This document shows, piece by piece, positions 17,936 through 40,230 of a stretch of DNA of 64,000 bases. How positions within the stretch are numbered: position 1 is the first letter of the stretch; each line of letters starts with the position of its first letter. The notes below the pieces were generated by a model. It did no database searches. It was not told where the DNA came from and saw only the letters and a list, made by a program, of their open reading frames with translations. Source of the DNA: a virus; the IMG/VR virus record IMGVR_UViG_3300033145_001136, positions 38,948 to 102,947 of that record; one strand, written 5' to 3'. The position numbers and the translations under genes are program-made.

Positions 17936-18434
17936 CATCTGCTCCATTGCTATTAATCGATGTTGCGTCACGTAACTGAGAAACCAATTCATACAAATAT
18001 TCCGGCAGGGTATCTGCTGTCGCCTTTATATCGGCATATACATTTGCATATACAGAAACCGACCCGGGCACAACCAACGCGATATTGCTAATAATTTTGT
18101 GTTCAAAATTCTGTAGATATTCGGCACTCGATATCAATAACTCTATTGGCGTCCCAATAGATAACCTTGATGGATTAGTGAAATTGAGAATAACTATGTC
18201 TGCTTCCAATACCGCTGCTCTATTTATTTCTGCTATATAATTACTAACTTGCACACTTGTTGGTGGGCCATTTAATTTATATGGACGATCTGGTAAAAAG
18301 ATACAATATCCAACTCCCAATTTCTCACACACCACTTCAATGAGTTCCATTACCTCACCCTGTGATATACCAGCATGAATCTCTGGTGGGCAGTCAATCG
18401 GCCCACCAAGATAAAAATTAATTGCCATATCCAT
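17889..18434 (-). CDS. Nucleoside 2-deoxyribosyltransferase / dNMP N-hydrolase family protein
   Basis: FYLGGPI, INRAAVLEADIVI, SIGTPIEL (catalytic Glu position). Confidence 0.7.
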   Translation of the reverse strand: MDMAINFYLGGPIDCPPEIHAGISQGEVMELIEVVCEKLGVGYCIFLPDRPYKLNGPPTSVQVSNYIAEINRAAVLEADIVILNFTNPSRLSIGTPIELLISSAEYLQNFEHKIISNIALVVPGSVSVYANVYADIKATADTLPEYLYELVSQLRDATSINSNGADDGYADAGSLLPDEPE

Positions 18435-18436
18435 AA

Positions 18437-19081
18437 TTATGTTCTCCTATGGCGGAATTTCTTAAGTTGCGCAGTCATTTCTTGTCTAATCATGGTGGCG
18501 ATTGGCTGAATACCACCAGCCGATAGTTCTTGCTTCGTACTGTGTATAAATTTACAATATGGTAAGGTATCTTGGATCGTTAGATAAATTGTACCCGTAC
18601 CTGTAAATGTAGTAGCTGTAGGATACTCTTCCCGTATCGCCGCAATAGTCTCAACACATCTAGCAGTATCTGCAACAATACGCTTATTAACGCTGTCCGT
18701 GGTCATATCATATATGTCACGACCACGTGCAAGACATCGCTTAAGTAAAATTTCTCTCTGACATTGAAAATCAACGCACACATCGATTTCAATGTCATTG
18801 TCTTTTAAGAATTGGACCTGTTCTGCTGTACGTGGAAATCCATCCAAGATGATCATTTTATTACTGTTCTCTTCCATCATTCGTAACACAGTATTTCTTA
18901 TAATCTCCTCTGCTGGATGCAATTCCCCCTCTGCAAGTGCTGCATCTGCTTCGTCTGACTCAATGGTTCTAGCTATATCGCCAGAAGAAATATGTGCAAA
19001 TTCATCAGTCTGCTTAACAATTTCTCTAGCATATGACGACGTACCGCTTCCTGTCGGACCTACAAATGTAATAACGATCAT
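18437..19081 (-). CDS. Adenylate kinase / NMP kinase family protein
   Basis: GPTGSGTS P-loop variant, HISSGDIAR, ILDGFPRTAEQ, short lid RGR..D. Confidence 0.85.
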   Translation of the reverse strand: MIVITFVGPTGSGTSSYAREIVKQTDEFAHISSGDIARTIESDEADAALAEGELHPAEEIIRNTVLRMMEENSNKMIILDGFPRTAEQVQFLKDNDIEIDVCVDFQCQREILLKRCLARGRDIYDMTTDSVNKRIVADTARCVETIAAIREEYPTATTFTGTGTIYLTIQDTLPYCKFIHSTKQELSAGGIQPIATMIRQEMTAQLKKFRHRRT

Positions 19082-19083
19082 TG

Positions 19084-20151
19084 TTATTCCTCTCTTGGCA
19101 TCGAAACTTTATTTCCTGGTTGAGCTTCGTTAGGGATTTCACCCCTATAATCAAATGCATGAACAAACCCACCACGAATAATATTGAGCATTTCAAAGTC
19201 AGCAACAAAATCACTTATCATACAAAGTTCATTGGTAAGGTTTGTATTTGATATTGTTAAGTTGTCAGAATTTATTGTTACCGGGATTCCAAAATCTAAC
19301 ATATATCTAAGTGGAAACGCGTGCTTGTATTTTACCGATCCCGTGTGAAAAGATGAAGACGGGCATAATTCAATTGGCGCGCCATAATCTCGCAATAATC
19401 GCATAATTCCTTTGTCATCCACTGCTCTATAACAATGTCCCAATCGATCCGGTTCAAGAGCTTCCACTGCTTCACCAATCATGTATGCCGGACAATTTTC
19501 TCCTATGTGAAAAGTCGCCTTCATCCCGCATCCCCTAGCCATAGAAAAGGCTTCATGAAATAATTTAGGAGAAATCGCTTCGTATCCTGCAGCATCAAAC
19601 CCAACTACAAACTTATCCATTAATTGTGTTCTGTGACTAAATACCTCGTCAAGCATATGTGTGGCTACTTTGGGCCCTTCCTGTCGCATAGCGATAACAA
19701 TAGCTCTACCGGTGATGTCGTCAAACATATCCCCTACCATCGCTAATCCCTCACATACCGCATTTACTGTATCTGCGACACCAAGTCCACGTCGCATATG
19801 TAGAGTTGGCGCAAATCTCAATTCAAAATATGTAACATTATCTTTTTTTAGTTGTTGACCTATGTTTATTACGCTATCCCGCAATAAATCGTATGTCTGA
19901 GTTATCCACAGTGGATAAAAGAAACAATCCAAATATTCTAATAACGTATTAGCATTTGCCGCAGATAGTTTTGCTCGTAATCGTCCAACATCTTGTAATT
20001 CTGGTGGCAGTATAACTCCTTCACCCATGTGCTCCACTTCTTTAGACAAGTGCACCATAAATTCCGGCTCTATTGATCCATCCAAGTGCAAATGTAATTC
20101 TGCTTTTGGAATTTGCCGTATTGTTTTATACCACTTATGATAATCCCTCAT
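19084..20151 (-). CDS. add: Adenosine/AMP deaminase family protein
   Basis: KAELHLHLDGS, YFELRFAP, FHIGE, RLGH, ELCPSS, TINSDN. Confidence 0.92.
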   Translation of the reverse strand: MRDYHKWYKTIRQIPKAELHLHLDGSIEPEFMVHLSKEVEHMGEGVILPPELQDVGRLRAKLSAANANTLLEYLDCFFYPLWITQTYDLLRDSVINIGQQLKKDNVTYFELRFAPTLHMRRGLGVADTVNAVCEGLAMVGDMFDDITGRAIVIAMRQEGPKVATHMLDEVFSHRTQLMDKFVVGFDAAGYEAISPKLFHEAFSMARGCGMKATFHIGENCPAYMIGEAVEALEPDRLGHCYRAVDDKGIMRLLRDYGAPIELCPSSSFHTGSVKYKHAFPLRYMLDFGIPVTINSDNLTISNTNLTNELCMISDFVADFEMLNIIRGGFVHAFDYRGEIPNEAQPGNKVSMPREE

Positions 20152-22916: not shown

Positions 22917-23605
22917 TATATATCGCGCCTCAGTATTCTCAATTCATCTTTTTTGATTTTCCATTCATCCAGCTCGTCCTGTACTTGGTCCGGATCAAGT
23001 ATCAAAGTCTGCTCCTGCTTTATTTTCTTAACTGGCGCATCATAGATTTGTTGCATACGCCTGTCTTCAACTTTTTCTCGCTGTATAGCCCCATTTAGTA
23101 TGCTTCTCCAGTAACCATAGTGTCGTTTATCCATTGCGACTTTATCTAATGCCTCGAAAGAATCATTAAAGACTTCTTGAGGATGTGTTTGTGCAAGCTC
23201 AACCAAATCTTGTAATTGATCTCTAGAAATGTCCTGGGTAAGATATTCGGTTAGCCCTGAATATAGGTGTGTCGTACAAGCAGTCCACTTTGGGTCTGGG
23301 AATTGACGATAGTCAGGCCTCTTACCATATTTGTTTTTAAATATCTGATAATAATATTTATTAAAACTATGAAAAATTTTAGAGGTCTCTGATGCCCTAG
23401 GCGCAAATTCATCAACCACATTTAACATAGCCACCGGGTAGAAACTATAAGCCAGTTTCTCTACTTCTATGAGATCATATTCTGGCTGTTGATCTGGTAA
23501 AACCCATTCAAGCCACCTAGTCAGAACTCTCCTGGCCGGTGTGCTCATCACTAAGGGAAGTGCTGCGATTCTCTCTGTGATCAAGTCGTCGTCGTGCTTC
23601 TGCAA
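22916..23605 (-). CDS. Hypothetical protein (possible replication accessory factor)
   Basis: 229 aa, stop abuts the primase start; function inferred from position only. Confidence 0.6.
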   Translation of the reverse strand: MQKHDDDLITERIAALPLVMSTPARRVLTRWLEWVLPDQQPEYDLIEVEKLAYSFYPVAMLNVVDEFAPRASETSKIFHSFNKYYYQIFKNKYGKRPDYRQFPDPKWTACTTHLYSGLTEYLTQDISRDQLQDLVELAQTHPQEVFNDSFEALDKVAMDKRHYGYWRSILNGAIQREKVEDRRMQQIYDAPVKKIKQEQTLILDPDQVQDELDEWKIKKDELRILRRDI

Positions 23606-26600
23606 GTCTTTTCTTCTCCTCGTCTGTTTCTATCAATTCTTCAAACTTGTTAAGCCATTCCCTAGCTGCAGCAAACTTATCTAACTGCTGAAAGGCCAGT
23701 AAACCAAGGTTCCACAATACGGCTTTATCGTCCTTGGTGATGGTATTATAGAACCGCTCATACCATTCGTATGCTTCCTGATTCATTTCTTGTCTATGAA
23801 GAAAAGAAGCATAATCTTTAATATTGAGCGCCACCATTTCTGGTTCTGGAATATCGGTCATCTCAGCCGCCCGCAAAAAGCATCTCTTAGCCTCTTCTAT
23901 TTCGTATCGCTCTTCATGGATGAGCCCAAGATTATGCCACTCTGTATAATCAATACGATCTTCCGGGAAAGCATAGATCTGTTCTAGCAAATGGTCCACC
24001 TTGAAATTCACTTTTTGTTTTGTGTGCATTAGCGCCATCATGACCATGTTAGTAATCGATGATTCTCCATCGCGTCTTTCGTAATCTATCTCTGCCTCTA
24101 TGGCCCTAAGAAGCAAGGCCTGTAAATCATCCCCACGCTTATGCATTTTTTTATATTCTTTAATCCGACCCTCTGCAATGGCATAATTCTTATCCGCAAT
24201 GTCTACCTTAAGCTGCAATACAACCGCATCAAATTCATCAGTACTATTGTCTATCACATCCTGAATCAATGCACGTACTTCATCAACCCTGCCACATAAT
24301 AGGGCCGCTTCTACATATCGTCTTCGCAACATAGGATCATCTATCACATCTTCAATTGCCCTACCTAACAACTCAAATGCTCTCTCTAAATTACCCTGTC
24401 GCACCATTAGTGTTGACAAATTCACAAGCACAAGTGAATCATTTGGTGCAATGGCATAGGCCGTTTCAAGGTGGTGCAGTGCTTTTTCAGCATTGTTGTG
24501 ATGGTCCATATAGTACGCCGCTAAGTTAAGGTGCGGTTCTATAGCATCTGGCTCAAGCTCTAGAGTTTGTTCATAGTAACCTCTGGCCTTTTCCCAATCC
24601 TCTCGATGCATGGCAATTAGTCCAAGGTTATTATATATTTGTGGCATATATGGTAATAGTTCTGCGGCTTTCAGAAACAATTTTTCTGCTTTAGTTGGAT
24701 TACTATCAATTACGATATTCGCCAATGCTAAATATGCATCGCCCAGCTTAGGATTAAGTTCTATGGTAGTTTCTAATGCAACTATTGCTTCTTGTACCCT
24801 ATCCTGACGTATTAGGGTAATCCCATAATTATACCATGCATCCGCATAGTCCGGCTTTAATGCGATTGCCTTTTCTAACTGTTCTTGTGCACTACTAACA
24901 TCATTTTTAAATTCCATATATTGTAGAGCTAATTCAAAACATGCCTTTGCATTTTCTGGATCTCCTTCTACCTTCTTTTGGCCAACTCTAATAGATTGGT
25001 CTCCCTTTCCTTTCATACGTTCTGTGTCACGAATCTTACCATAGTGATGTACCAACACATCTACTACTTGAAGAACACGCATCCCCATCTCAAGGGCATG
25101 CGGATCAATTAGTTCGTGATATGGGAACCTCCACATTAATCCTTTTTGTGCTGGATATAGCCGAGTCTTTGTGGAGACGGCATAACCAGGACATCCCTTT
25201 GTATAAAATTCTGAATACTTCGGATCTGTCGGGAGCCACCGAGCCGCACCGCGCCCACGATAATAATTTGCCGTCTGTATCTGATACACCGATTCGTGCT
25301 CTAACACACGCGCACAAAGATGTCGCAGTGCCTGCATATCCTCGTTTGATATCGTCTCGTCCGCATCAACACACAGATGCCAGTCTACCATATCATCTAT
25401 TAAGGATTGAGCATAATTTCTGGCCTTTGCAAAGTCTTCGTCAAAATCTTCCACCATATCCTTCTGCGTCACTATTAACTTATCTCCAATTTCCGGATCA
25501 TTTTTAAGCCTTAAAAGAATATCCATAGTCTTATCGGTAGACCCCGTATCCACAACTACCATTCTATGTAAATGTGGAATGTGTTGTCGTACAAGTTGCT
25601 CTACATACTCTTCTTCATCCTTTACAATGGCAGCAACCCCAAGCCTAAGCCCAGATATATCTGTTGGACCCATGACATCTATTGCTCTAACGCTTTTACC
25701 TACTATAGTCGATTTACCACTTGCGCTATCTATTTCAGCCGCTTTATCAATATATTTCTGCGCTTCGATCTCCCTGTCTTGCGACCGTAAATGTACTGCA
25801 TAGTTAATTAAGTTTGTTACATTAGTGTCATCTACTTCTATTGCCTTAATGAACCATTCGTCTGCAGCCGTAAAGTCTTCATCAGCATGATACGCAACCG
25901 CCATCGCACCATAATATGTCGGCTTCTCCGGATTTCGTTCAATCAGTTCCGTAAGTTCAGCTATTATATCTTTACCTCGTAAGTTACCAGCAACAATAAT
26001 TTTATATCGTAGGTCATCTAGTGGGACATGCGCATATGCACAATTGTAATATTGCACAGCCATCGGGCCATTTCCTGAGATCGCGTATAAGTCACCATAA
26101 TCCTCAAATGCTTTCTCTTTAGTAGCTTCGTCCACCTCATCAATATATACACCTTCTGGCGCTGCGCCAATAACATATGCATCGTGCGCATCTGCAAACG
26201 TGTTACCAATAACAACTCTACACCATACTACGCGCACACCAGAATCCTCTTCATCCATGTCAAATCCGACAGATCGCAAAATAAGGTTTTCTGTAGCATC
26301 TAATTTTTCTACTGTCTGTGAAACATATTCCGGGATATTGGCGTAATCTGGCCATGCCAGATTAACAATTGTAAACGCTTCTGGACCGAATCGCTGCAAC
26401 CCCATTTGCATCATTGATTTATATTGCAAACCAATTGACACATTCTCGGTCATAAACGACACACCCGCAATTCCTTTTATCCTTTGTAAATATTCAATAT
26501 ATTCCCTATTATACACCCCGATGAGGATTGTCCCCTTGAGTTTACGTATAAATGTTTCCGCCTCTGCTATTTCAAAATCTTTTGGTATTAATATAAGATA

Positions 26601-26609
26601 CATCGTCAT
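23517..26609 (-). CDS. GT2 glycosyltransferase with multiple TPR repeats
   Basis: IVKDEE, VVVDTGSTD, DFAKARN, VDADE, HHYG; many TPR repeats (YADAWYNYG, IYNNLG, WHNLG). Confidence 0.9.
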   Translation of the reverse strand: MTMYLILIPKDFEIAEAETFIRKLKGTILIGVYNREYIEYLQRIKGIAGVSFMTENVSIGLQYKSMMQMGLQRFGPEAFTIVNLAWPDYANIPEYVSQTVEKLDATENLILRSVGFDMDEEDSGVRVVWCRVVIGNTFADAHDAYVIGAAPEGVYIDEVDEATKEKAFEDYGDLYAISGNGPMAVQYYNCAYAHVPLDDLRYKIIVAGNLRGKDIIAELTELIERNPEKPTYYGAMAVAYHADEDFTAADEWFIKAIEVDDTNVTNLINYAVHLRSQDREIEAQKYIDKAAEIDSASGKSTIVGKSVRAIDVMGPTDISGLRLGVAAIVKDEEEYVEQLVRQHIPHLHRMVVVDTGSTDKTMDILLRLKNDPEIGDKLIVTQKDMVEDFDEDFAKARNYAQSLIDDMVDWHLCVDADETISNEDMQALRHLCARVLEHESVYQIQTANYYRGRGAARWLPTDPKYSEFYTKGCPGYAVSTKTRLYPAQKGLMWRFPYHELIDPHALEMGMRVLQVVDVLVHHYGKIRDTERMKGKGDQSIRVGQKKVEGDPENAKACFELALQYMEFKNDVSSAQEQLEKAIALKPDYADAWYNYGITLIRQDRVQEAIVALETTIELNPKLGDAYLALANIVIDSNPTKAEKLFLKAAELLPYMPQIYNNLGLIAMHREDWEKARGYYEQTLELEPDAIEPHLNLAAYYMDHHNNAEKALHHLETAYAIAPNDSLVLVNLSTLMVRQGNLERAFELLGRAIEDVIDDPMLRRRYVEAALLCGRVDEVRALIQDVIDNSTDEFDAVVLQLKVDIADKNYAIAEGRIKEYKKMHKRGDDLQALLLRAIEAEIDYERRDGESSITNMVMMALMHTKQKVNFKVDHLLEQIYAFPEDRIDYTEWHNLGLIHEERYEIEEAKRCFLRAAEMTDIPEPEMVALNIKDYASFLHRQEMNQEAYEWYERFYNTITKDDKAVLWNLGLLAFQQLDKFAAAREWLNKFEELIETDEEKKRLAEARRRLDHRENRSTSLSDEHTGQESSD

Positions 26610-28351
26610 CGGTATTCACCCTTGCTAATTTTCGATTTCCAGTCTGTACCAAGTAAATAAGCTGCATCTTTAGTATACCACTGGTTCACTTGCTCAATAT
26701 CTGTGAATCCTCTATTCGCTTGTACCTGTTTCAAATAATCTAGATATTCGGTCGGTTCTAGACTATCTGGGTGTCTGGGGTCACCAAGATGCTCAACCCT
26801 CATTGACATTGGATCATAATATCCAACCAGCAACCCTGCTCTAGACATATCACGTTGATACGTAGTCCACCCACCAAGCTTGCCAGCTCCCTCTTCTGGC
26901 CCCAATAAGCCAAATCGTGCTAAAATAGCGGTTCTAGCGATATACGCGCACCCGCCCACATAAGGCTGTTGTAAAAATTTTACTATACCATAGTCTTTCA
27001 CCGTAAATTCCCCATATGCTTCATCCGGTATAAAGACTGTATCATCTTCTATGAAATGGAACCCCGCGATAACCCCAAATTCCTGAAAAGACGTATTATA
27101 TAAATCTATGGTTCGCCGTAAAAAGTCTTGGGGTACAATGGTATCTGAGTCCACTTTTGCAACAAATTCAGTTCTGGCTTCACGCCAAAATGTGTTTGTG
27201 ATCAAGTATAAATATTCCGATTCGTCAGACCTTATGAGATTAATCTTTATATCTCTACCCGAATCTTTTAACATCGTTTCCACTTTATTTTGTACATCAA
27301 ATTCATCTGTGGCATTATCCACTAATGTAATATTAAAATTTGGATAATCTAGGTCCAACACCGATTTAAACGACTTTTCAAAATATCGCTCTCTATTATA
27401 GGCCAGCATCAATAGTGACACAGCGGGGTCTGGATTAATCTCTGGCTGTACCTGCTCATTCAAAAATATCATAGGATGGTCTAGCTCAAGATGCCCAGAA
27501 GGCTGTGGCATCTTTGAATCACCAATTAACCCAGAATTTGGATCGACCAACCCTTCCCATTTTTCGATAAATTTCTGCTTATTTTCCTCCATTGTATTTC
27601 TGTGATCAATTTTATTTTCTCGGAACGTAGCAGATCCAAAGTGCCACATCCACACATTACCTATCGTACCCATCTGATATCCCGCTTCCAACATAGCGGC
27701 TGAGATATCGTTATCTTCAAAGTTCCCTATGGTATATCTTTCATCCCATCCTCCGATTCGATGAAACACATGCTTACGCATAATTAGGCAAAAACCAACC
27801 AATCGCGGCACCAATTTAAGCCCTTGATTATTAGCCAAAAACACCTTCGCTACTTCATCTACCTCTTCATCTGTATTAATTGAGTGTTGTGGCTTTACGT
27901 TTTGATAACCAGATACGTTGTTAGCCATTGGCCCTACCGCAGCTAATTTCTTTTTAATTATAAAATATCGCATCATAGAAGACAGCCATTTGGGCCCAAC
28001 AACAAGGTCATTATTCATAAAGCACAAAAATTGACCCTTTGCGTGTTCTGCCGCGTAGTTATTGCCACCAGAAAATCCCAAATTCTCGCCTGGGTCCAGT
28101 AATTTAATATCCTTACAATATAGTTTCGCCTCTCCATCTAATCTAGACATTTCAAAATGTATATATAATTCTTTTAGATATTCCTCTGTTTCATCTGTAG
28201 AACCATTATTAACGAGCACCAACTCATACGGATAACAAGTGTTTTTTAAGATCGATGAGACGCACCGTCTTGTGTGATCTACAGCATTATAACAAAGCAC
28301 AATGATGCTTACCATGCTTTGCTGTTTCGTTTTTTTATATTTCTTCGCCAT
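26606..28351 (-). CDS. Two-domain GT2 glycosyltransferase
   Basis: VSIIVLCYN, NNGSTD, NLGFSGGNN, FMNND, FEDND; second domain LAYNR, VDN, KVDSD. Confidence 0.88.
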   Translation of the reverse strand: MAKKYKKTKQQSMVSIIVLCYNAVDHTRRCVSSILKNTCYPYELVLVNNGSTDETEEYLKELYIHFEMSRLDGEAKLYCKDIKLLDPGENLGFSGGNNYAAEHAKGQFLCFMNNDLVVGPKWLSSMMRYFIIKKKLAAVGPMANNVSGYQNVKPQHSINTDEEVDEVAKVFLANNQGLKLVPRLVGFCLIMRKHVFHRIGGWDERYTIGNFEDNDISAAMLEAGYQMGTIGNVWMWHFGSATFRENKIDHRNTMEENKQKFIEKWEGLVDPNSGLIGDSKMPQPSGHLELDHPMIFLNEQVQPEINPDPAVSLLMLAYNRERYFEKSFKSVLDLDYPNFNITLVDNATDEFDVQNKVETMLKDSGRDIKINLIRSDESEYLYLITNTFWREARTEFVAKVDSDTIVPQDFLRRTIDLYNTSFQEFGVIAGFHFIEDDTVFIPDEAYGEFTVKDYGIVKFLQQPYVGGCAYIARTAILARFGLLGPEEGAGKLGGWTTYQRDMSRAGLLVGYYDPMSMRVEHLGDPRHPDSLEPTEYLDYLKQVQANRGFTDIEQVNQWYTKDAAYLLGTDWKSKISKGEYR

Positions 28352-30989: not shown

Positions 30990-31645
30990 ATCTTCTCATT
31001 AATTATGATGTTTGCTGCTTCTACGATTTCTTTGAACACACCGATTTTCATAATGGCAAACGCATCCATGTCCGAATCATACCGTCTGCGTAAGTGCGTG
31101 ATTCGCCCGTTCCTAACCATTCGCTCCCAATCGAGTCTAAATCCATTAGTGGGGGATCTGTCATCTCTTGAGCGTGTTGTTCTATCCACTTCATAATGGT
31201 CTGTCGAATAAGCTTCTGTACCTCTTCCCATTTGCTGTAAAAGACATAAGCTATCTGCATCAATGGCCACAAGTGTATTGTCACGTAGGTCGTACTTACG
31301 GCTGTAGGCAACAAAATGGAATCTGATCGACAATCTTTCTGCATCGCCTCTTGCCTCAAGCAACCACCCGTATTCAAACTTTGGGAAGGGATGCGGAGTT
31401 CTTGGCCCAAGAGATCGGCCAAGCTTGGTTTTTCGCTCACCATCACGTTGTTTACATTCTCCTAATAGATTTCCGGGTATTCGTACCGTTGTGCCCATCA
31501 CCTCAGTGGTAATTACATGCACCACATCACCAAGCATACCTTCTCGAGCCTCAGAATGCCCATGTGAGCCAGACCCGATTTGCCGTTCTAGTCCGAGCTG
31601 CTTAGCGACCCATCGTTCCATCCCCTTCCAGGCTGTAGATGCCAT
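30986..31645 (-). CDS. PD-(D/E)xK nuclease, Holliday junction resolvase-like
   Basis: WKGMERWVAK, GSG, GDVV and ECK pattern; adjacent to recA. Confidence 0.65.
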   Translation of the reverse strand: MASTAWKGMERWVAKQLGLERQIGSGSHGHSEAREGMLGDVVHVITTEVMGTTVRIPGNLLGECKQRDGERKTKLGRSLGPRTPHPFPKFEYGWLLEARGDAERLSIRFHFVAYSRKYDLRDNTLVAIDADSLCLLQQMGRGTEAYSTDHYEVDRTTRSRDDRSPTNGFRLDWERMVRNGRITHLRRRYDSDMDAFAIMKIGVFKEIVEAANIIINEKI

Positions 31646-32748
31646 TATTCCTCAGGTTCCTCCTCGGACACACTAGCCGGGCCACCCTGCAGAACAAGTT
31701 TCATCTTATTTAGGGTTTCTTGTCTGATGGTCTCTATAACATCTGGGTCTAAAGCTTCCTTAAACTTTACAACCCCATTGGCCCTAATATCACCGTAGCT
31801 GAGATATGAACTATCCGTCTTAATTACGGCCAGATGTCGTGCTGTCTTTACAAGATCATCGATCACATCCACACCAGTACCAAAATCCACGTGGAATTCA
31901 ATAGGTTCACTCTTCGCTGCCGTTTTATTTTTCTCAATTAATAATCGTATATCAACGGCTACTTCTTTTTCAATGGCCTTGCTGTCCTCATCTATAAAAT
32001 ATTTGGCCCAATATTGCTTAATACGCTTAACTCGAAACACGTATGTTCCATAAAACGATGGTGCGGTTCCACCCGAAGCTTGTTCCGACGGACCAAACAT
32101 AACCATTGGTTTCTGTCGACTCTGCGCTACTAAATTAAGGTAGCAACCTGGTTGTCGCTGGATTTCCGCGTTTGTGACTTGCAATTGTGCAGAAGTTAGT
32201 TGAGCCAATGCTGCTTTCTTTGCGGCTTGATCAACTGTTTTTGATTTCATAATCTGTGCTGGCACCAAAGCCGTGATAGAATCCTTCATAATATAAATAA
32301 TTTCGCCCGATCGAATTAGCTGATTTGTTATGTCAAACCATTCCTCGCCAGTAAGTGGACGCCCATCTAATTCCTTAATCCCGGACGTTAGATCCCTGCC
32401 AGATATCCATAATAGGTTTGGATCGTTTGGATCTACGCCGCACGCCCGCATAAAGTCTTCGTCCAGTGCTCCCTCCACATCTAATATGGCACATTTTTTA
32501 CCTATAAAATCCTCATATTGTCGGCGCTGTAATTCTTGGATCCTGGCTATCGTACATAACCCCAACATTGTTTTACCCGTGCCTTGATCACCCCACGTAA
32601 GCCCCATGCGCCCACCAACAAACCCACCAGTCCCAAGGGCCAAATCCAATGATAAAATCCCTGTTGGTATTATTAGCCGACCCTGCCTATGTTCAAACAT
32701 ACCTGGATATTGTCTCGATAAAATCGCTTCTAATGATTTATCTGCCAT
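31645..32748 (-). CDS. recA: RecA/UvsX recombinase
   Basis: IPTGILSLDLALGTGG, GDQGTGKT, DVEGALD, DSITALVP, VMFGP...GG, KNKTA. Confidence 0.95.
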   Translation of the reverse strand: MADKSLEAILSRQYPGMFEHRQGRLIIPTGILSLDLALGTGGFVGGRMGLTWGDQGTGKTMLGLCTIARIQELQRRQYEDFIGKKCAILDVEGALDEDFMRACGVDPNDPNLLWISGRDLTSGIKELDGRPLTGEEWFDITNQLIRSGEIIYIMKDSITALVPAQIMKSKTVDQAAKKAALAQLTSAQLQVTNAEIQRQPGCYLNLVAQSRQKPMVMFGPSEQASGGTAPSFYGTYVFRVKRIKQYWAKYFIDEDSKAIEKEVAVDIRLLIEKNKTAAKSEPIEFHVDFGTGVDVIDDLVKTARHLAVIKTDSSYLSYGDIRANGVVKFKEALDPDVIETIRQETLNKMKLVLQGGPASVSEEEPEE

Positions 32749-32753
32749 ATCAC

Positions 32754-33059
32754 CTATCCCACATAGTGTATTGGGTTGCCTGGATGCGACTCAAGGTCAG
32801 GATCACAATTTTGATCATACATGCCATTTACTAGGGCGGCATCATACCAGAATGCCACCCTATTAAACAGTGCCTCACCCCATGTCTTAACCCCATGATC
32901 AAACATCCATTCAAGATAGTGTGCTAATTCAGCATCATCTGCCATATCTGATAATCGCTTGCCATTTACTCTTTTATGATATATAATTGCATCTATCTCA
33001 CCCACTGGCTCCCAATTATCGGACTGTCCTTTGACAGATTCCCACCCCATTAGCCACAA
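32754..33059 (-). CDS. Hypothetical protein
   Basis: 101 aa, packed in the operon. Confidence 0.55.
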   Translation of the reverse strand: MWLMGWESVKGQSDNWEPVGEIDAIIYHKRVNGKRLSDMADDAELAHYLEWMFDHGVKTWGEALFNRVAFWYDAALVNGMYDQNCDPDLESHPGNPIHYVG

Positions 33060-34432
33060 ATCTTCGTATGCAGATCAATAATGGCATCATCTGTCCACGC
33101 ATTATAATTATAGACAGCATCGCCATCAATCTTGTGTTTAGCCGCTATCTCCTCGAGAATATCCGCAACCTCGGCAGCTTTGTCATCTGACATGGTACTT
33201 ACCTTCTCTCCAACCTCATTAATCATTGTATCGCAATCAATGATGCCAGTGCCATTTTCTTCTGCTTCAGGGGTACTCGGAGTTGCGGCTTCCAACGTAG
33301 CCCCAAGTGTCTTATCTGCTTCGCAGGCATCCCAGATCACTTTTGCTGCAGCCTTAGCCGCCAACGCCTCTGGACTTCCCTTCACATTGTTGTAAGTCCA
33401 TTTCATTCGGCCAATACCTTTGAGCGCAATGACCTCACCAAGCGTCAACCCCTTAACATCTTTACCACCTACTGGATAAATCGTAGCCAATGCGTCCTGT
33501 AACGACATTGATGGGATTGCATCTTTGGCTTCCCTAGCTGCCTTAGCTTTTGCAAAAATATCAACACCAGCCCCAGATGAAGTGGATTCTTCGGGTTTCG
33601 ACTCCTCCGCCGTCTCCTCCGGAACGGAAGATTTATCCACGACTTCTGTCACAGCAGGAGTACTGGCTTCAGGGGCAACTTTATCTGCGTTTTGCATATC
33701 GGGTGGTAAAGCCACACCAACACCAGCCACAATTGCCTTTTGTTCCTTACCAGTGATTTCACCACGCACATATTTGTGCACATAATCATGACTCTGTGGT
33801 AATTCTGCTTTTAATGCTAAAGCAAACAGCCCTTCTACGAATTCCCCAATTTCCATGCCATCGACATCTGCATCCATCACTGACCAATCGAATTCGGTCT
33901 CACCTTCTGCAAATGCACTATATTTTGTTCCGCGTCGACGTTCCATCCCCTTCTGTACCTTTTTCGTCACAATTATGTCTTGCTTGCCAAGGGACCCACG
34001 CTTCTCTTTAATCTCGTGAAGATCCTTGTAAAGCATATTACCACCCTTCAAAAATTCGACTTTCCCGGTGGTATGATTCCAAACAGGGAGCACGTGGACC
34101 ACAGTTCTTGCAAAATGAAGTGGCTGACCTTCCTTCGGTCCAGAATTGTAATATTTATCATCCTTTGCAAGCTGATCCCACATCGGATCTTCCATACCAT
34201 TCAAACCAGCATAATCGACCCCACGCTCATAATCTGGATTTGCTAAAAATGTACGGAATTGTCGCAGAATATTCTTCTTTCCTTCACCATCCACAGTAAA
34301 CACTTCCGGCACCCTATACATCCACATACTAAGTGGTTCATCACTAAGAATGCGAACTGTGTAATCTTTGTTATCATCAAATGCCACATATGGGGTACTC
34401 GATCCCTCACCTAGTACAGTTGGCCAACTCAT
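33050..34432 (-). CDS. Putative phage single-stranded DNA-binding protein (gp32-like) with C-terminal extension
   Basis: YTVRIL, VLPVWN, DIIVTKK...GTKYS pattern followed by an acidic Ala/Pro/Glu linker; upstream of recA; start MSWPTV overlaps the previous TGA. Confidence 0.55.
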   Translation of the reverse strand: MSWPTVLGEGSSTPYVAFDDNKDYTVRILSDEPLSMWMYRVPEVFTVDGEGKKNILRQFRTFLANPDYERGVDYAGLNGMEDPMWDQLAKDDKYYNSGPKEGQPLHFARTVVHVLPVWNHTTGKVEFLKGGNMLYKDLHEIKEKRGSLGKQDIIVTKKVQKGMERRRGTKYSAFAEGETEFDWSVMDADVDGMEIGEFVEGLFALALKAELPQSHDYVHKYVRGEITGKEQKAIVAGVGVALPPDMQNADKVAPEASTPAVTEVVDKSSVPEETAEESKPEESTSSGAGVDIFAKAKAAREAKDAIPSMSLQDALATIYPVGGKDVKGLTLGEVIALKGIGRMKWTYNNVKGSPEALAAKAAAKVIWDACEADKTLGATLEAATPSTPEAEENGTGIIDCDTMINEVGEKVSTMSDDKAAEVADILEEIAAKHKIDGDAVYNYNAWTDDAIIDLHTKICG

Positions 34433-34623
34433 TCCATTCCTCCTGTTTCCGTAATATTCGCCCAAAGATCTATTCTGATCCGCTTTTGCAGTTCTTTGGC
34501 TTCTTCTATCAATTCCTCTGGATCATCTGTGGATACCTCATGCTCTACCCACATACTAAAATCTTCTGATTGATAATTCCCTCTATTTATCTTTGCGCTT
34601 GCAGATGCACCGATCTTACCCAT
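34429..34623 (-). CDS. Small hypothetical phage protein
   Basis: MGKIGASASAKINRGNYQSE..., overlaps both neighbours. Confidence 0.6.
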   Translation of the reverse strand: MGKIGASASAKINRGNYQSEDFSMWVEHEVSTDDPEELIEEAKELQKRIRIDLWANITETGGME

Positions 34624-35701
34624 TAAAAATTCCCCTATCAATAAAGTGATCGTAAAACGGCCCTGTACCGACCCATCCAACCACACATTCGGGATACCGT
34701 GCTTCTATATCCTCGATAAATGATTGGACCTCAATCGTCAAGGCATCCCATTCCTGTATGCTATAATTGGCCCAATCAATATAATCTACAAAATTAAGAC
34801 ATATGGCCTGCGGCCTATTTATAGCCATAGCTTTGTCCATGTCTTCAATTGACCATGTAAATATGCGCCTAATCTTTTTAGTTACGGTCGTTTTCTCACT
34901 TAATGATTCAGGAGAGCCAGACATTTTTGTGATTTGCTTCCATGTTAGTTCTTTCCCACCTGTAGGCCCCGAATTTCCACCGACTCGAATCGGAAACGTT
35001 CTAGCAACCCCAAACACATTTCTCGCCACCCTTGGAGAAAGCCCCGCCTCCATTAACCAATTAGATGCGTTCGTGTCTCTGGAAGTACAGAATGGCCACC
35101 ACTGGGTATGATGTAGACTTAGTCCCATGCCCTGCGTCCCCTCCAACAAAATAGGCTTGTTATCATCAACCGCCTGGTTTAAAAAGGCTTCAGTATCTAT
35201 TAAATATGGCTCAAGCCAATCACAATCTTTGGCAAATTTTAGATCTTGTCTACGCCATACCTTATCAGACAATGCCGCACCACATCCCTCACGCGTACTA
35301 CCAATACGATCAGACATGTCTTGATCTTTATCGCCCTTAGCATGTTCTGCATTGATGTGTTTTTGTTCGATAATCATTGCATAGTGATCAATCCATAATC
35401 TATCTTCTACAGGCGTATTGGCCTCTGTAAGCCAATCAATCTCTTTGGAAAGCTGTGATTCAATAATCATAGCGGCTCGCCCAATAACCAACTCGCTTGT
35501 TGTTGCTTCCATCGCACCACATGGGATTGTTTGAAAAGCATGTTGTTGTGATCGATCTGGCGTCCACACCTTATGTCCAGCATTTGGGGCACCGGTTCTA
35601 ACGTGGATCGCATAATTCTTCGCAATCCTCTCAACCAGTCTACCCTTCCCCTCAGAACCATATTGTAATCCAACTACTATGTCTACACACTGATTGGGCA
35701 T
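34616..35701 (-). CDS. purZ: Adenylosuccinate synthetase superfamily, PurZ/PurZ0 type (putative 2-amino-2'-deoxyadenylosuccinate synthase)
   Basis: QYGSEGKG (Ser at the PurA catalytic Asp), NAGH, IGST..GCG, LEGTQG, RTFPIRVGGNSGP, TTVTKKIRR, NFVD; short ~360 aa archaeal/PurZ-like length. Confidence 0.8.
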   Translation of the reverse strand: MPNQCVDIVVGLQYGSEGKGRLVERIAKNYAIHVRTGAPNAGHKVWTPDRSQQHAFQTIPCGAMEATTSELVIGRAAMIIESQLSKEIDWLTEANTPVEDRLWIDHYAMIIEQKHINAEHAKGDKDQDMSDRIGSTREGCGAALSDKVWRRQDLKFAKDCDWLEPYLIDTEAFLNQAVDDNKPILLEGTQGMGLSLHHTQWWPFCTSRDTNASNWLMEAGLSPRVARNVFGVARTFPIRVGGNSGPTGGKELTWKQITKMSGSPESLSEKTTVTKKIRRIFTWSIEDMDKAMAINRPQAICLNFVDYIDWANYSIQEWDALTIEVQSFIEDIEARYPECVVGWVGTGPFYDHFIDRGIFNG

Positions 35702-35782
35702 TATAATACTCCCTCGCAAAGTCCAGCTATTTATGTTCGCTGAGAAAATATTGGTCGAAAATATGTCAGGAAGAAATTTTTA

Positions 35783-37183
35783 TTATTTCAACACCTCTAA
35801 AATTGCGGCTTCATCCCTGAACAACGCAGTATATTCCACCATATATTCCCGCATTTCCGCAACAAATTCGTTCAAATCTAACCCCTGCGTAGCAAATCTT
35901 TCGCGCAAATATGCTGAATCCACCATTGCAAGCCATAACCCGCCACACTTTTCTATATCAAGTGGAAAATCATTTTTTATAAATTCATAAACTTCTTCTC
36001 TACCAAACCCACGCTTAGTTAATAGATTCAGCATATAATATGACCAATGCCCTGCTTGTATGTGATATGTCTCTATATTATCTTGTATCCGCTCAGTATC
36101 GACGTCTATCGTTTTTATTACTTTGGTCATGCTTGTTAGCATATGTAGTATTGTATGATATGAATCTTCTATTATTACTCTTTCTGTAGACGAATGTGAA
36201 ATATCTCTCTCGTGCCAAAGCTGCGTATTATCGAGTGTGACCATTGTGTATGATTTCATTAGTCGATGCATACCACATATTCTTTCACACGTAATTGGAT
36301 TCTTTTTATGTGGCATGGCTGACGACCCAGATGATGCTGATGGCCTTGCCTCTAATATCTCTGCTACCTCTGTGCGATGTAGGTGCCTAATTTCCATCGC
36401 TAGTTGCGCCAATATAGAAGACAGACCTGCCAGCATTGTTGATCTGCCATATTGTATCATTCTTGGCAATATTTGATCGGTTGCTTGCCACACTTCAAAG
36501 GGATAGTGTATAGACACATCATATTTTCTCCCTAGGGCTAATTTCATAAATGTGTCTTTTGCTTGTTTTTCCATGTCTCTTGTAATAAACTCATGGCAAC
36601 CCATTGGGCCACTAGCCTTAAAATAAAATTCTTGACCGTCAAACGCACCAGCGATTTTCTTAAGTAGATAATAGTATTTAAACAATTTGTGTGTTAATGT
36701 AATATATGCTCCATGGACACCATGTGTACGTCCCGACATTGGCTGACCAGCATATTGTATTATTTTATTCTCCAATATATGTATTAAATTATCTAATTCG
36801 CAAGCAACCACCCACGTCGAGTACGCCGATTGTATTTCTTGTACAGAATCAACCACATCAGATGATGTGGCCCCCCAATGTAACAAATTTCTTATATGAT
36901 CAGGTAGTTTGCCCATTAGCGCCAAATCGAGTACATTTATAAATGCCATGACATCGTGCTCAGTACGCTGTTCCTCTATGTGAATTCGTTCCACTAATTT
37001 ATTAGTATAGTCTGAATTATCTAAAAGCCCATGGCATAATCCAATTATAGCGTGCTCATTTATGTGGTCGTCTGATTTTGTAATAGTAGCCAACATAGCC
37101 ATTTCGTATGTGGTAGCTAACTCCCATTTTATTTGGTCGCCCCATATTGTTTCTATCCTCGAATCCATGTATCTATCAATCAT
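35783..37183 (-). CDS. purB: Adenylosuccinate lyase
   Basis: MIDRY, TEHDVMAF, HWGATSSDVVD, GRTHG, GSSAMPHKKNP, WHERDISHSSTER. Confidence 0.95.
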   Translation of the reverse strand: MIDRYMDSRIETIWGDQIKWELATTYEMAMLATITKSDDHINEHAIIGLCHGLLDNSDYTNKLVERIHIEEQRTEHDVMAFINVLDLALMGKLPDHIRNLLHWGATSSDVVDSVQEIQSAYSTWVVACELDNLIHILENKIIQYAGQPMSGRTHGVHGAYITLTHKLFKYYYLLKKIAGAFDGQEFYFKASGPMGCHEFITRDMEKQAKDTFMKLALGRKYDVSIHYPFEVWQATDQILPRMIQYGRSTMLAGLSSILAQLAMEIRHLHRTEVAEILEARPSASSGSSAMPHKKNPITCERICGMHRLMKSYTMVTLDNTQLWHERDISHSSTERVIIEDSYHTILHMLTSMTKVIKTIDVDTERIQDNIETYHIQAGHWSYYMLNLLTKRGFGREEVYEFIKNDFPLDIEKCGGLWLAMVDSAYLRERFATQGLDLNEFVAEMREYMVEYTALFRDEAAILEVLK

Positions 37184-37709
37184 TGTCACCCTCCAAGACA
37201 TAGAATACCACATCCGATGGTGGTAGAAGTAATGCTTTAGCCGGATTTTCATCCGGATACCCAACTGGAATTATACTTATTGGTCGCAACCAAGTTGGTA
37301 ATCCAAGTATACCTTCCACCTGAATTTCATCGAATGCCCCAATCCAACACGCTCCTAATCCCATATCGTGGATTGCTAGTAACCCATTCTGTATTGCTGC
37401 CGCCGCATCAAGAAGCGCATAAAGAGAACTACCACGTACGCCATACTTTGCCGCACTACGCTGCAAATCGGCGCACACAACTATCACTAATGGTGCGTCT
37501 CCTATGAACATCTGTTTAAGGCTGGCCTCTGCCAGCTCTCTTTGTATGCGTTTGTTAGTTACAAAAACAAATCTACGACTTTGTAAATTCCCCGCACTAG
37601 GGGCAATCATCATAGCCTCTAAAATTTGTTCAACGTCTTCATCAGCGATTGGATTATTTGTGAATTTCCTAATACTTCTACGCGAATTTGCCAGTTCGAT
37701 AAAGCTCAT
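37176..37709 (-). CDS. Nitroreductase family flavoprotein
   Basis: RRSIRKF, APSAGNLQ, LGACWIGAF, IIPVGYP. Confidence 0.92.
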   Translation of the reverse strand: MSFIELANSRRSIRKFTNNPIADEDVEQILEAMMIAPSAGNLQSRRFVFVTNKRIQRELAEASLKQMFIGDAPLVIVVCADLQRSAAKYGVRGSSLYALLDAAAAIQNGLLAIHDMGLGACWIGAFDEIQVEGILGLPTWLRPISIIPVGYPDENPAKALLLPPSDVVFYVLEGDND

Positions 37710-37876: not shown

Positions 37877-38436
37877 TTTGGCTCCTCTATACCTACAATA
37901 ATTGAGCGACTGAGTATCGTTTTGATGCACTCTATAGCAGGAAATGATCCGAATGTATTGATTGCTTCCTGTATCTCTCTCTGTTCTTTCTCCATGCTGG
38001 CGCACCTGGCTTGCCACTTGTGCCATTCATTAACAGCCTCATCCTTTTCTTCTTCGGTAAGGATAAGTTTACTCCGCAATTCCGTACACTTGGCTGACAG
38101 TAATTCTTGTCGGTCAATGGCATCAAGAAACTCCCAGTCAGCCTGCTCACCAGACAAGCCATGCTTCTCCATTAGGTCGATGATTGCCCCTGCGAGCTTA
38201 TTGCGCTCTCTCGCCCCACTGAATCGTGCTTCTCGTACATCGTCTTGTAGTCCCTCCACCTGCTCACCGAGTGTGGAAGCTTTGGAGAGTGCCAATTCTG
38301 CGAGTTCAGAATCCACGATCATCCAGTTGCCCGTTGCTTCATCGAGATAGTGCCACGCCTTTGTCGGTGATTTCCTAAATCTGACGGCATGGTATCCATC
38401 GGTTTTCACTTCTATCTCCTGTTCTCTATCACTCAT
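37873..38436 (-). CDS. Hypothetical coiled-coil mosaic protein
   Basis: 187 aa; shares LGEQVE and QARCA segments with the 46411 ORF. Confidence 0.65.
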   Translation of the reverse strand: MSDREQEIEVKTDGYHAVRFRKSPTKAWHYLDEATGNWMIVDSELAELALSKASTLGEQVEGLQDDVREARFSGARERNKLAGAIIDLMEKHGLSGEQADWEFLDAIDRQELLSAKCTELRSKLILTEEEKDEAVNEWHKWQARCASMEKEQREIQEAINTFGSFPAIECIKTILSRSIIVGIEEPK

Positions 38437-38446
38437 GGCTCACCCC

Positions 38447-38638
38447 TTATCCTGTCGGCTCGACCGGCTCGACGAATGTTGTGTGGTAATCCTCGTATTT
38501 CTTCAGGGTCAGCAGCTTGCTCTGAAGTTCAGTCAGCGAGATCGTGACCCTTCTGAAATCAGGCCCGACGCCGGTGTGTACCAGTGCGCCATAATTACCT
38601 ATCACGACAGTCAACCTTCTCGGCTTTCTCTCACTCAT
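38447..38638 (-). CDS. Hypothetical protein
   Basis: MSERKP start overlaps the upstream TGA. Confidence 0.5.
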   Translation of the reverse strand: MSERKPRRLTVVIGNYGALVHTGVGPDFRRVTISLTELQSKLLTLKKYEDYHTTFVEPVEPTG

Positions 38639-39204
38639 GGCTTCATCCTCGGCGGCTTCGGGTAGTGCTTGCGTACGATGTCGGCACATCTTGCCAGCCA
38701 CTCCTTGCGCTTGTCGGCGGCATCGGCGGCATAGACGGCATCGGCGGCAGCATTGGCAGCATCGGCGGCATAGACGGCATCGGCGGCATAGACGGCGGCA
38801 TCGGCGGCATAGACGGCGACATAGGCGGCGGCATCGGCGACATAGACGGCGGCATCGGCGGCATAGACGGCGACATAGGCGGCATCGGCGGCATAGACGG
38901 CGACACGTACTTCATCCAGCGTAGCCTCGCCGGTTACCCACTTCTCTGCTACCTGAACGGCCTTCTTGTTTTCTTTCGGCATCCACTTCCATGCTGTCCT
39001 TGCACACTCACAGGCAGCAGATACCAGCACCTTGCGGCTCTTGCTCTCGGGCTTACCGCATACAGCACCTGCCAGCCAGAGCATCCAGTCGCCTCGTTTG
39101 CACTCTTGCCATGCTTCTGCCAAGGTTTTGTAATCTCTCGCCCATTCAACGGCTTCTGAGCAGGCGTGAAGTTTCTCCAGTTTACTACTCCAGTGGTCAC
39201 TCAT
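38635..39204 (-). CDS. Hypothetical protein with Ala/Asp/Tyr-rich repeats
   Basis: LHAC.EA..W, RGDWMLWL, then (A)ADAAVYA repeats; GGAGG RBS. Confidence 0.75.
   Translation of the reverse strand: MSDHWSSKLEKLHACSEAVEWARDYKTLAEAWQECKRGDWMLWLAGAVCGKPESKSRKVLVSAACECARTAWKWMPKENKKAVQVAEKWVTGEATLDEVRVAVYAADAAYVAVYAADAAVYVADAAAYVAVYAADAAVYAADAVYAADAANAAADAVYAADAADKRKEWLARCADIVRKHYPKPPRMKP
38713..38904. repeat. Imperfect coding tandem repeat (GCCGCCGATGCC / GTCTAT units)
   Basis: Reiterated ggcatcggc and ggcatagacggc units encoding AADAAVY. Confidence 0.9.
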
Positions 39205-39916
39205 GGCTACCTCCTGAGTCGTGGGCGGTGAGAAACAGCTTGGCCTTCGTTAGCCATTCCAGCCATTCACCGAAGTCGCCTTGCGGTCCGAGTTCTTCCC
39301 ATGTTGCCACTTCGCCGTTTAGGTGCAATCCATCGACTCCATGCGATTCAGCAATCAGGTCATCCATGCCTTCGATGCAATCACGTATGACCGCATCCTT
39401 GCGAGCGATGGTCTGGGCCTGTGAGTCAATGTGGGAGAGGAGGATGCGACAATAAGCCACCCATTGTCTTTCTGCTCCACTGAGAGATTTCTGCCATGAG
39501 GGGGTTTCTGCACGTTCGACATACTCCCGTATCTCCTCCACTCGGCCAGGCTCCTCAGCAGGGGCGGCGAGTGGTCCGTTATTCAGCGCTTCGTCGATTT
39601 TCACACGGTCAACATGAATACCGAGTAATACCTTTTCGCGTCCATCGTGTTCAGGCCCCCAAATTAGCATCCCATTGATAAAGATGCTGATTTCATTGTA
39701 TTCCAATACATCGATCCAGACTTTCTCTTGCTCCGCAGGACTATCGGGAGCAGGGGCGGGGGGCACTTGATTCCATGCCGCCACTTCTTCCGGGGTATTG
39801 CATGACGGACAACCTGGATCGACACAGTCCATAGAGTCAGGTGAATCATTGGTTTTACATGAACAATTACCGAGATATCTTTTCCCACAATCTTCACACC
39901 ATTTCCAATCAGTCAT
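39197..39916 (-). CDS. Hypothetical mosaic protein
   Basis: 239 aa; PAPAPDSP and EEPGRVEEIR linkers; C-terminal SHGVDGLHLNGEVATWEEL module. Confidence 0.7.
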   Translation of the reverse strand: MTDWKWCEDCGKRYLGNCSCKTNDSPDSMDCVDPGCPSCNTPEEVAAWNQVPPAPAPDSPAEQEKVWIDVLEYNEISIFINGMLIWGPEHDGREKVLLGIHVDRVKIDEALNNGPLAAPAEEPGRVEEIREYVERAETPSWQKSLSGAERQWVAYCRILLSHIDSQAQTIARKDAVIRDCIEGMDDLIAESHGVDGLHLNGEVATWEELGPQGDFGEWLEWLTKAKLFLTAHDSGGSHE

Positions 39917-40230
39917 TGGTCTACCTCCCGCTCAACAGGTAAGCTCCGATGGGGCATATCGGGTCCACCACCGTTCGTTACTTTCCGCCAGCCAGACCCG
40001 TCCTCGTTGTCGATGTAGAACGGTTCCTGTTCTGGATATCTGTCGCTCCATACCTTGACGGCCTCGCGCTCGGTTCCTTCGAGTCCGTTATGCCAGTAGG
40101 TAGATACCTCGCATGGACCAACAATCACTCTGACGCGGGTCGCCTCGCACGGCTCGTAGTTCCAGCAGGTTCGCAGCCCATCAACCGACTTTAGCGGAGT
40201 CAACGGCTTCATAGGGCGTAGGTTCATCAC
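39913..40230 (-). CDS. Hypothetical protein
   Basis: 105 aa, GGAGGGG RBS. Confidence 0.6.
   Translation of the reverse strand: MMNLRPMKPLTPLKSVDGLRTCWNYEPCEATRVRVIVGPCEVSTYWHNGLEGTEREAVKVWSDRYPEQEPFYIDNEDGSGWRKVTNGGGPDMPHRSLPVEREVDQ

Follow-up and report, generated by a model that had tools for sequence, protein, structure and literature searches.

Two groups of Ser-type relatives of the adenylosuccinate synthetase PurA have been studied in connection with 2-aminoadenine (Z) in phage DNA: the ATP-type PurZ of phiVC8, S-2L and similar phages and the GTP-type PurZ0 of actinophages. The Ser13, PIRV and TVTKK positions of these enzymes were tied to selection of the guanine 2-amino group and of deoxyribose, with exclusion of the ribose 2'-OH, while Arg303 of PurA contacts ribose O2' (PMC8342488). 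The subsequent conversion of N6-succino-2-amino-2'-deoxyadenylate (dSMP) into the Z monophosphate dZMP is described as host-supplied (PMC8342488, PMC12783734, bioRxiv 2025.10.22.683976). PurB-like lyases are annotated in the PurZ0 phages Archimedes (gene 38), Ghobes, Sapo and Frizzle and in the Streptomyces phages Hiyaa (gene 76), Spocter, Keanu and Galactica, so the pairing of purB with purZ is not new. Here we describe a purB-purZ pair located in a 64-kb window, the right-hand part of a single 102,947-bp IMG/VR virus record (IMGVR_UViG_3300033145_001136), which is linear, comes from an uncultured virus and is about 66% complete according to CheckV. The two genes probably provide a phage-encoded route from dGMP, aspartate and GTP to dSMP (PurZ-like synthetase) and further to dZMP (phage PurB).

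Ser-type synthetase and the adjoining lyase

The first-pass annotation of this DNA had placed a candidate dGMP to dZMP route, independent of the host lyase, in the interval 34616-37183, which bounds both genes precisely. Almost all genes of the window, including these two and the gene upstream of them, are located on the minus strand:

34616-35701, minus strand: purZ-like gene, coding for a 361-aa Ser-type, GTP-type PurA-family synthetase, predicted dSMP (succino-2-amino-deoxyadenylate) synthase
35783-37183, minus strand: purB-like gene, coding for a 466-aa divergent adenylosuccinate lyase, predicted to convert dSMP into dZMP and fumarate
37176-37709, minus strand: nitroreductase-family flavoenzyme gene (Pfam Nitroreductase, 7e-36)

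purZ probably starts from the ATG at 35701, upstream of which lies GAGGGAG (the reading frame was translated over 34616-35719, minus strand); the resulting 361 aa agree with the length of about 360 aa given at first pass. purB starts from the ATG at 37183, preceded by GGAGGG (reading frame translated over 35783-37264, minus strand). As had been claimed, an intact purB with all catalytic motifs lies directly upstream of purZ. Both genes have the same orientation and are separated by 81 nt, with no terminator predicted between them on their strand. Between the stop of the nitroreductase-family gene and the purB start there is an 8-nt overlap (ATGATTGA), and the two genes are translationally coupled. 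Given this overlap and the 81-nt gap lacking a predicted terminator, the three genes look like one operon.

The synthetase matches Pfam Adenylsucc_synt (PF00709, 4.7e-48) and PHROG 1211 (3e-71) and can be aligned over its full length to both short PurA and PurZ. Its best solved relative is the short PurA of Pyrococcus horikoshii (1e-46); the matches to phiVC8 PurZ, Archimedes PurZ0 (7VF6) and S-2L PurZ have E-values of 3e-36, 5e-36 and 3.5e-25, respectively. A megablast search of the locus against cultured phages gave no match, and all cultured-phage PurZ proteins matching the synthetase are less than 40% identical to it.

Translation gives the motifs VGLQYGSEGKG, RTFPIRVGG, EKTTVTKKIRR and CLNFVDY, which contain all four strings singled out at first pass (QYGSEGKG, FPIRV, TTVTKKIRR and NFVD). 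Ser occupies the position of PurA Asp13 (E. coli numbering), with GSEGKG instead of the GDEGKG found in four Asp-type PurAs. FPIRV is present where PurA has T(T/S)RV, the Thr before RV being replaced by Ile. TVTKKIRR replaces TVTGRxRR of PurA in a pattern identical to TVTKKVRR of phiVC8 PurZ, with loss of the PurA Gly-Arg303 (TVTGRxRR changed to the TVTK/N/Q-K/R/L-xRR pattern). NFVD keeps the guanine-reading Asp, as PurZ0 does with TMLD, SMAD or TMVD, together with the 'NF' of ATP-type PurZ (NFCN or NFAQ); on this point the alignment agrees with the first reading. Since the Asp is retained, GTP is predicted to be the phosphate donor.

Ten alignment columns are invariant in the four Asp-type PurAs and different in all nine PurZ/PurZ0 references. 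In these columns the synthetase has the PurZ/PurZ0 residue in seven cases, another non-PurA residue in two and the PurA residue in one. Fourteen columns discriminate PurZ from PurZ0; here it agrees with PurZ in six, with PurZ0 in three and with neither in five. GSEGKG, EGTQG, GNSGP and the Asp of NFVD are PurZ0-like, while 'NF' and CTSRD are PurZ-like. Judged by its motifs, the synthetase is a mosaic of PurZ and PurZ0. Nearly all of its 120 best relatives in a collection of 5.8 billion proteins have GS[ETC][GA]KG, PIRV and TVTK[KR]xRR, and the same combination is common to the characterised PurZ and PurZ0 enzymes, so it is not due to chance.

Trees were built with FastTree (295 sequences) and IQ-TREE (57 sequences, LG+G4, 1000 ultrafast bootstrap (UFBoot) replicates). 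In the latter, all Ser-type sequences including the synthetase form one clade (UFBoot 100), which excludes one short Asp-type archaeal PurA and three canonical long PurAs; FastTree agrees with the placement among Ser-type enzymes. Nesting within canonical PurA had been named as an outcome that would speak against the first reading, and the synthetase falls outside Asp-type PurA. Its assignment to the PurZ/PurZ0 type, made at first pass, is therefore upheld both by the signature residues and by the tree. Within the Ser-type enzymes it belongs to a clade of 22 sequences from environmental viruses (UFBoot 96). This is a clade of its own, distinct from the actinophage PurZ0 (Archimedes, Wayne, TurboVicky, Hiyaa) and from ATP-type PurZ (phiVC8, ZP6, S-2L, Bhz9, PMBT28). 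By this placement, the synthetase is a member of a separate uncharacterised viral lineage, outside the actinophage PurZ0 clade proper. Its earlier designation as PurZ0-like holds for the catalytic Ser and the GTP-type Asp but not for clade membership. The nodes joining the 22-sequence clade, PurZ0 and PurZ have a support of only 57-79%, so the tree gives no firm branching order. Of the suggestion that the protein is an evolutionary intermediate, the mosaic of motifs remains while the tree provides no order to back it.

The lyase matches TIGR00928 (purB) with an E-value of 2e-70 and 237.8 bits, below the trusted cut-off of 326.2, and Pfam Lyase_1 with 5e-22. Its best PDB match is the Thermotoga adenylosuccinate lyase 1c3u (8.5e-50), the alignment beginning at residue 1. 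The catalytic motifs are all kept: HDV, TSSD, GRTHGVH, SSAMPHKKNP..ER and WHERDISHSS. The lyase has the fumarate-lyase fold together with its SSxMPxKxN signature loop and the catalytic His residues. Identity to any cellular PurB does not exceed 36%, and the only closer relative is protein P0124 (42% identity). ADSL_C (PF10397), present in cellular relatives, was detected neither in the lyase nor in P0124. P0124 and P0004, the latter being the 71%-identical relative of the synthetase, are singletons, and the ENA contigs they come from both measure exactly 2869 nt. The identical length fits a single contig carrying both, in which case the purB-purZ pair would be conserved in this relative. The 71%-identical PurZ relative is also carried by the JGI contig L192, which starts only 121 nt upstream of the gene; the 31-aa fragment encoded there matches neither PurB C-terminus.

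In a FastTree tree of PurB sequences, the lyase shares a long branch with a second viral sequence. The idea of a single phage PurB clade co-inherited with PurZ was rejected, as phage PurBs are polyphyletic in this tree and at least one of them (L012) nests among cellular PurBs. Since phage PurBs do not form one clade, the lyase was either acquired several times or diverges fast. In another PurZ-bearing virus record, of 178 kb, purB (L186, G010:C1:173359-174630) has two TGA codons in frame but still reaches 402 bits; this suggests either that TGA is recoded in that phage or that the gene is broken.

A survey of IMG/VR found purB within 10 kb of PurZ in two out of 80 PurZ-bearing loci and anywhere in the record in four out of 50 PurZ-bearing records (about 8%); among the 29 records with a completeness of at least 90%, two have it. 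In none of the purB-bearing cases among these loci and records does purB directly adjoin purZ. Phage purB accompanying purZ is a minority trait.

Replication module and accessory genes

purZ is followed by genes for an SSB-like protein, a RecA/UvsX recombinase, a UvsW-type helicase, two glycosyltransferases and a primase-helicase. The first two, beside which the first-pass annotation had located the pair, lie directly downstream:

33050-34465, minus strand: SSB-like protein, 471 aa (weak match to PHROG 14578, E 2e-5)
31645-32748, minus strand: RecA/UvsX recombinase (Pfam RecA, 3e-29; PHROG 97, 3e-42)

An SSB-like homologue (48% identical) is also located downstream of the PurZ gene of contig L192, and SSB-like homologues follow PurZ in L002 and L046 as well. 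Two large PurZ phages, G007 and G008, share the gene order of this phage, with RecA and UvsW homologues downstream of PurZ. On the other side of the pair, no nitroreductase-family gene was found beside PurZ among the 80 viral loci. This gene has no known role in Z biosynthesis.

The region at window positions 38001-40000 has a G+C content of 0.54 compared to about 0.42 elsewhere. Its open reading frames (ORFs) have no family assignment apart from one weak PHROG 38757 match, and it may be a recently acquired segment. The window also has a SbcC/SbcD-like fusion (1149 aa, 1684-5133) and a family-4 uracil-DNA glycosylase (10158-10850). The two glycosyltransferase genes within the replication module are large, and one of them has TPR repeats (23517-28351).

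The replicative polymerase and a cluster of four coupled genes (17411-20151) are listed below. The cluster is some 15 kb away from purZ, flanked by the primase-helicase on one side and by a class II ribonucleotide reductase with inteins on the other:

5078-8518, minus strand: DnaE-type (Pol III alpha) replicative polymerase (Pfam DNA_pol3_alpha, 4.5e-76; PHP, finger, HHH_6)
19084-20151, minus strand: adenosine/adenine-deaminase-family (Ada) gene, 355 aa (Pfam A_deaminase, 2.6e-56; best PDB match 3ou8, 4.5e-26)
18437-19081, minus strand: adenylate-kinase-like nucleoside monophosphate (NMP) kinase, 214 aa (Pfam ADK, 1.5e-15; TIGR01351, 2e-20, below cut-off)
17889-18434, minus strand: NDT-superfamily (DmtZ-like) protein, 181 aa (ESM Atlas and motifs)
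17411-17992, minus strand: dUTPase-family gene (Pfam dUTPase, 1.7e-26, domain at aa 68-193)

DnaE is at most 35% identical to any cultured-phage DnaE, and no PolA/DpoZ was found in the 103-kb record. DnaE is located within 10 kb of PurZ in seven out of 80 IMG/VR loci. The combination of PurZ with DnaE is not mentioned in the cited Z-genome literature. The class II (B12) ribonucleotide reductase (1655 aa, window 12429-17396, minus strand) has two inteins, with an Intein_splicing domain and a LAGLIDADG homing-endonuclease domain.

The best structural match of the Ada-family protein, 3ou8, is presumably the Pseudomonas adenine deaminase PA0148. HxH, HxGE and GH, the metal-binding and catalytic motifs, are kept, and 'SDD' is changed to 'SDN/TDN'; the same change is present in both Ada homologues (L188, L189) of the syntenic phages G007 and G008. 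These two relatives account for all Ada-family genes in the 50 PurZ-bearing records, so Ada was rejected as a general PurZ partner; it is a trait of this lineage and does not count as independent evidence for a role in Z synthesis. Elsewhere, hardly any cultured-phage record contains an Ada-family gene. The protein is a candidate adenine-pool sink, and the NMP kinase is a candidate dZMP kinase.

No match to the NDT Pfam families was found in the 103-kb record. The NDT-like ORF has no Pfam or PHROG relative, nor any HMMER relative among 1.84 billion representatives. In the ESM Atlas it has a feature score of 0.93 to NDT clusters and a structure TM of 0.62-0.65; one of the matching clusters consists of NDT-dUTPase fusions and is 99% viral. 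Its Y8, D14, P57 and E98 match the DmtZ pattern Tyr6/Asp12/Pro57/Glu103, and in a pairwise comparison it aligns weakly (E 0.006) but in register with the DmtZ domain of Hiyaa gp69. A single-sequence AlphaFold model (pLDDT 40) was too poor for a structure search. With such a model and no sequence relatives, the NDT assignment is based on the ESM Atlas and the motifs.

This ORF adjoins the dUTPase-family gene; in PurZ0 phages, dmtZ and dutZ lie side by side (PMC12884076), and PurZ0 sensu stricto is delimited by dutZ being always and dmtZ mostly present. The true start of the dUTPase-family gene is probably internal, and its score against TIGR00576 (102.4 bits) is at the canonical dut cut-off. 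A PurZ-linked Dut clade is found within 200 nt of PurZ in 27 out of 43 viral loci. DutZ identity of the gene is not borne out by a small tree. Gene 53 of Gordonia phage Archimedes (L081:177-614) is annotated as 'deoxyuridine triphosphatase'. Its product starts with IYYAHPID and contains PTIGTWLE, which are motifs of the NDT/DmtZ type and not of dUTPases. By these motifs, the two members of the DmtZ/DutZ pair may have been confused in the public annotation.

Z synthesis and other explanations

We propose that the PurZ-like enzyme would condense dGMP with aspartate, most likely at the expense of GTP, giving dSMP, and that the co-transcribed divergent PurB would remove fumarate from it to yield dZMP. 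A kinase, possibly the adenylate-kinase-like enzyme of the phage, together with the host nucleoside diphosphate kinase would then produce dZTP, which the phage DnaE-type replicase would incorporate opposite T. The analysis itself shows the anatomy of the genes, their family membership, the signature residues, the phylogenetic position, the operon structure and the frequency of the pairing in other viruses. The substrates, the nucleotide donor, the use of dSMP by the lyase and the presence of Z in virion DNA are what we infer from the sequence. Signature residues, phylogeny and the intact lyase motifs all support the candidate host-lyase-independent route put forward at first pass. Also in its favour are the close spacing of purB and purZ, the two ENA contigs of identical length, the PurB-like genes of cultured PurZ0 phages, the NDT-like ORF beside a dUTPase-family gene and the gene order shared with G007 and G008.

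Several findings weigh against Z synthesis. The NCBIfam PurZ model NF038379 gives the synthetase 222 bits with a cut-off of 300, and the top PDB and NCBIfam sequence matches are archaeal PurA. Families MazG, HD and DUF550 were not found in six frames of the 103-kb record, which is about two thirds complete, and the DUF550 search had no positive control. DatZ, p26 and DpoZ of phiVC8 gave no tblastn match in the record, and a search of it with phiVC8 MazZ found nothing. In the small tree, the dUTPase-family gene groups with cellular dUTPases and not with the PurZ-linked Dut clade. PurA, PurB, Adk and Ada can also be read together as an adenylate-metabolism set. Finally, cellular Ser-type copies usually occur beside a canonical PurA, e.g., in the complete Sorangium, Dehalococcoidia and Cenarchaeum chromosomes. 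As to the first of these points, NF038379 was built on ATP-type PurZ, so the score below cut-off reflects divergence; the archaeal PurA model of NCBIfam is missed by the synthetase as well (242.6 bits, cut-off 368).

Short Ser-type (GSEGKG) PurA paralogues are widespread in cellular genomes and metagenome-assembled genomes (MAGs), including those of Sorangium, Dehalococcoidia, Cenarchaeum, Loki- and DPANN archaea and Saccharibacteria. PIRV and TVTKK are missing from the most basal of these paralogues. A 1.0-Mb Nanoarchaeota MAG has the Ser-type copy only. A PurB-like gene is located within 6 kb in three out of 80 cellular Ser-type loci (L126, L086, L106). These paralogues may be prophage-borne or may have another role. 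Since they coexist with canonical PurA, Ser alone may not always mean Z-DNA, which slightly lowers our certainty.

The existence of such paralogues in cellular chromosomes is one reason to consider that the phage enzyme has a related yet distinct job, acting on another (deoxy)purine monophosphate or producing a metabolite of the nucleotide pool, with PurB completing the reaction and Z absent from the DNA or only partial. The lineage is uncharacterised and stands apart from both studied groups, PurB is very divergent and lacks ADSL_C, and the nitroreductase-family gene coupled to it has no place in the known Z pathway. However, all substrate-contact motifs that distinguish PurZ/PurZ0 are present and are identical or nearly identical to those of phiVC8 PurZ, and none of our data suggest an alternative substrate. 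We consider this explanation unlikely.

Another possibility is adenylate supply: the pair would convert IMP to adenylosuccinate and AMP, Adk-like kinase, Ada and the class II ribonucleotide reductase would help to boost or rebalance the (d)ATP supply of the infected cell, and the DNA would contain normal adenine. PurA and PurB are exactly the two enzymes of the AMP branch, and the three other genes are located in the same replication module. The archaeal PurA matches, the canonical appearance of the dUTPase and the failure to find DatZ, MazZ and DpoZ in the 103-kb record fit as well. What makes this quite improbable is the state of the synthetase itself: Ser stands in place of PurA's catalytic Asp13 and KK in place of the GR that binds ribose 2'-OH and Asp, and nine out of ten PurA-invariant signature columns are lost. 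It is also nested in a clade whose characterised members all use dGMP (PMC8342488, PMC12884076), and the usual presence of canonical PurA in cells with a Ser-type copy implies a different function of the latter. That the pair consists of passenger or decaying genes, taken up not long ago from a cellular genome or a different virus and without a role in phage DNA chemistry, is very improbable: such capture does happen, as the non-monophyly of phage PurBs and the position of L012 among cellular PurBs indicate, but both ORFs are intact, have Shine-Dalgarno-type sequences upstream and keep all catalytic motifs, PurB shares its long branch with a second viral sequence and the PurZ-SSB-like synteny is conserved in L192 (71% and 48% identity).

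Z synthesis by the phage pair thus appears to be the best reading of the locus. An extension of it, in which the phage runs a largely host-independent Z-DNA programme assembled from other components than both known ones, is possible but doubtful. In addition to the third-clade GTP-type PurZ with its own PurB, such a programme would comprise a new route of adenine disposal, with conversion of dAMP to adenine by the DmtZ-like NDT and of adenine to hypoxanthine by the Ada-family protein (clade-specific change of SDD to SDN), phosphorylation of dZMP by the phage NMP kinase and copying of Z-DNA by DnaE instead of DpoZ/PrimPol. If Z-DNA is indeed made, this would mean that Z genomes can be replicated by an enzyme of the Pol III alpha type, and the deaminase and the kinase would be added candidate enzymes for a synthetic-biology Z toolkit.

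Comparison with known systems

The synthetase resembles the short archaeal PurA of Pyrococcus horikoshii (PDB 5K7X/2D7U) in its best overall match (1e-46) and in the architecture of about 340-360 aa. However, short archaeal PurA has GDEGKG, PTRV and TVTGRRRR, whereas the phage protein has the PurZ states and lies outside Asp-type PurA (UFBoot 100). The lyase resembles PurB of the Thermotoga maritima 1C3U type in having the Lyase_1 fold from residue 1 and conserved catalytic His/Ser/Lys/Glu motifs. It differs from bacterial PurB by its low identity (at most 36%), a score below the TIGR00928 cut-off and an unrecognisable ADSL_C.

With ATP-type PurZ (phiVC8, S-2L, Acinetobacter SH-Ab 15497-type, PMBT28) the synthetase shares Ser13, PIRV, TVTKKxRR, CTSRD and 'NF', but it has GSEGKG in place of GSTGKG and Asp in place of Asn/Gln at the donor-base position. 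For the latter reason, GTP rather than ATP/dATP is predicted as the donor. The ATP-type PurZ phages also differ in their DatZ, MazZ, DUF550 and DpoZ, not found in the 103-kb record.

The actinophage PurZ0 (Gordonia phages Archimedes (PDB 7VF6) and Ghobes, Arthrobacter phage Wayne, Streptomyces phage Hiyaa) have GSE(G/A)KG, EGTQG, PIRV(A/G)GNSG and the guanine-reading Asp in common with the synthetase. As in their systems, the genome also encodes a PurB-like lyase, and an NDT-like (DmtZ-type) gene is located beside a dUTPase-family gene (PMC12884076). The synthetases are only 32-36% identical, though, and belong to separate clades. DnaE is the replicase here and PolA/DpoZ-1 in the actinophage systems; the genome exceeds 100 kb, while those of actinophage PurZ0 phages have 40-80 kb. 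The Dut-like gene is outside the DutZ-type clade, and the Ada-family gene and the NMP kinase are extra. purB adjoins purZ in the same orientation here. In Archimedes it has the opposite orientation and is separated from the synthetase gene by about 6.4 kb; in Hiyaa the distance is about 4.4 kb.

Overall, what is new in this phage is the lineage of the synthetase, the tight nitroreductase-purB-purZ operon, the DnaE context in which known dATP-exclusion genes were not found and the cluster of deaminase, kinase and NDT genes. The synthetase samples a large uncharacterised Ser-type branch mixing PurZ and PurZ0 states, which makes it useful for mapping the evolution of donor (GTP or ATP) and substrate specificity. 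That an unrelated, large environmental phage replicating with DnaE has such a tight purB-purZ operon suggests that carriage of the lyase is a recurrent solution. A phage lyase may matter where host PurB is absent, limiting or poor on dSMP. Phages of the phiVC8/S-2L type rely on host PurB (PMC8342488), whereas this phage encodes a lyase of its own.

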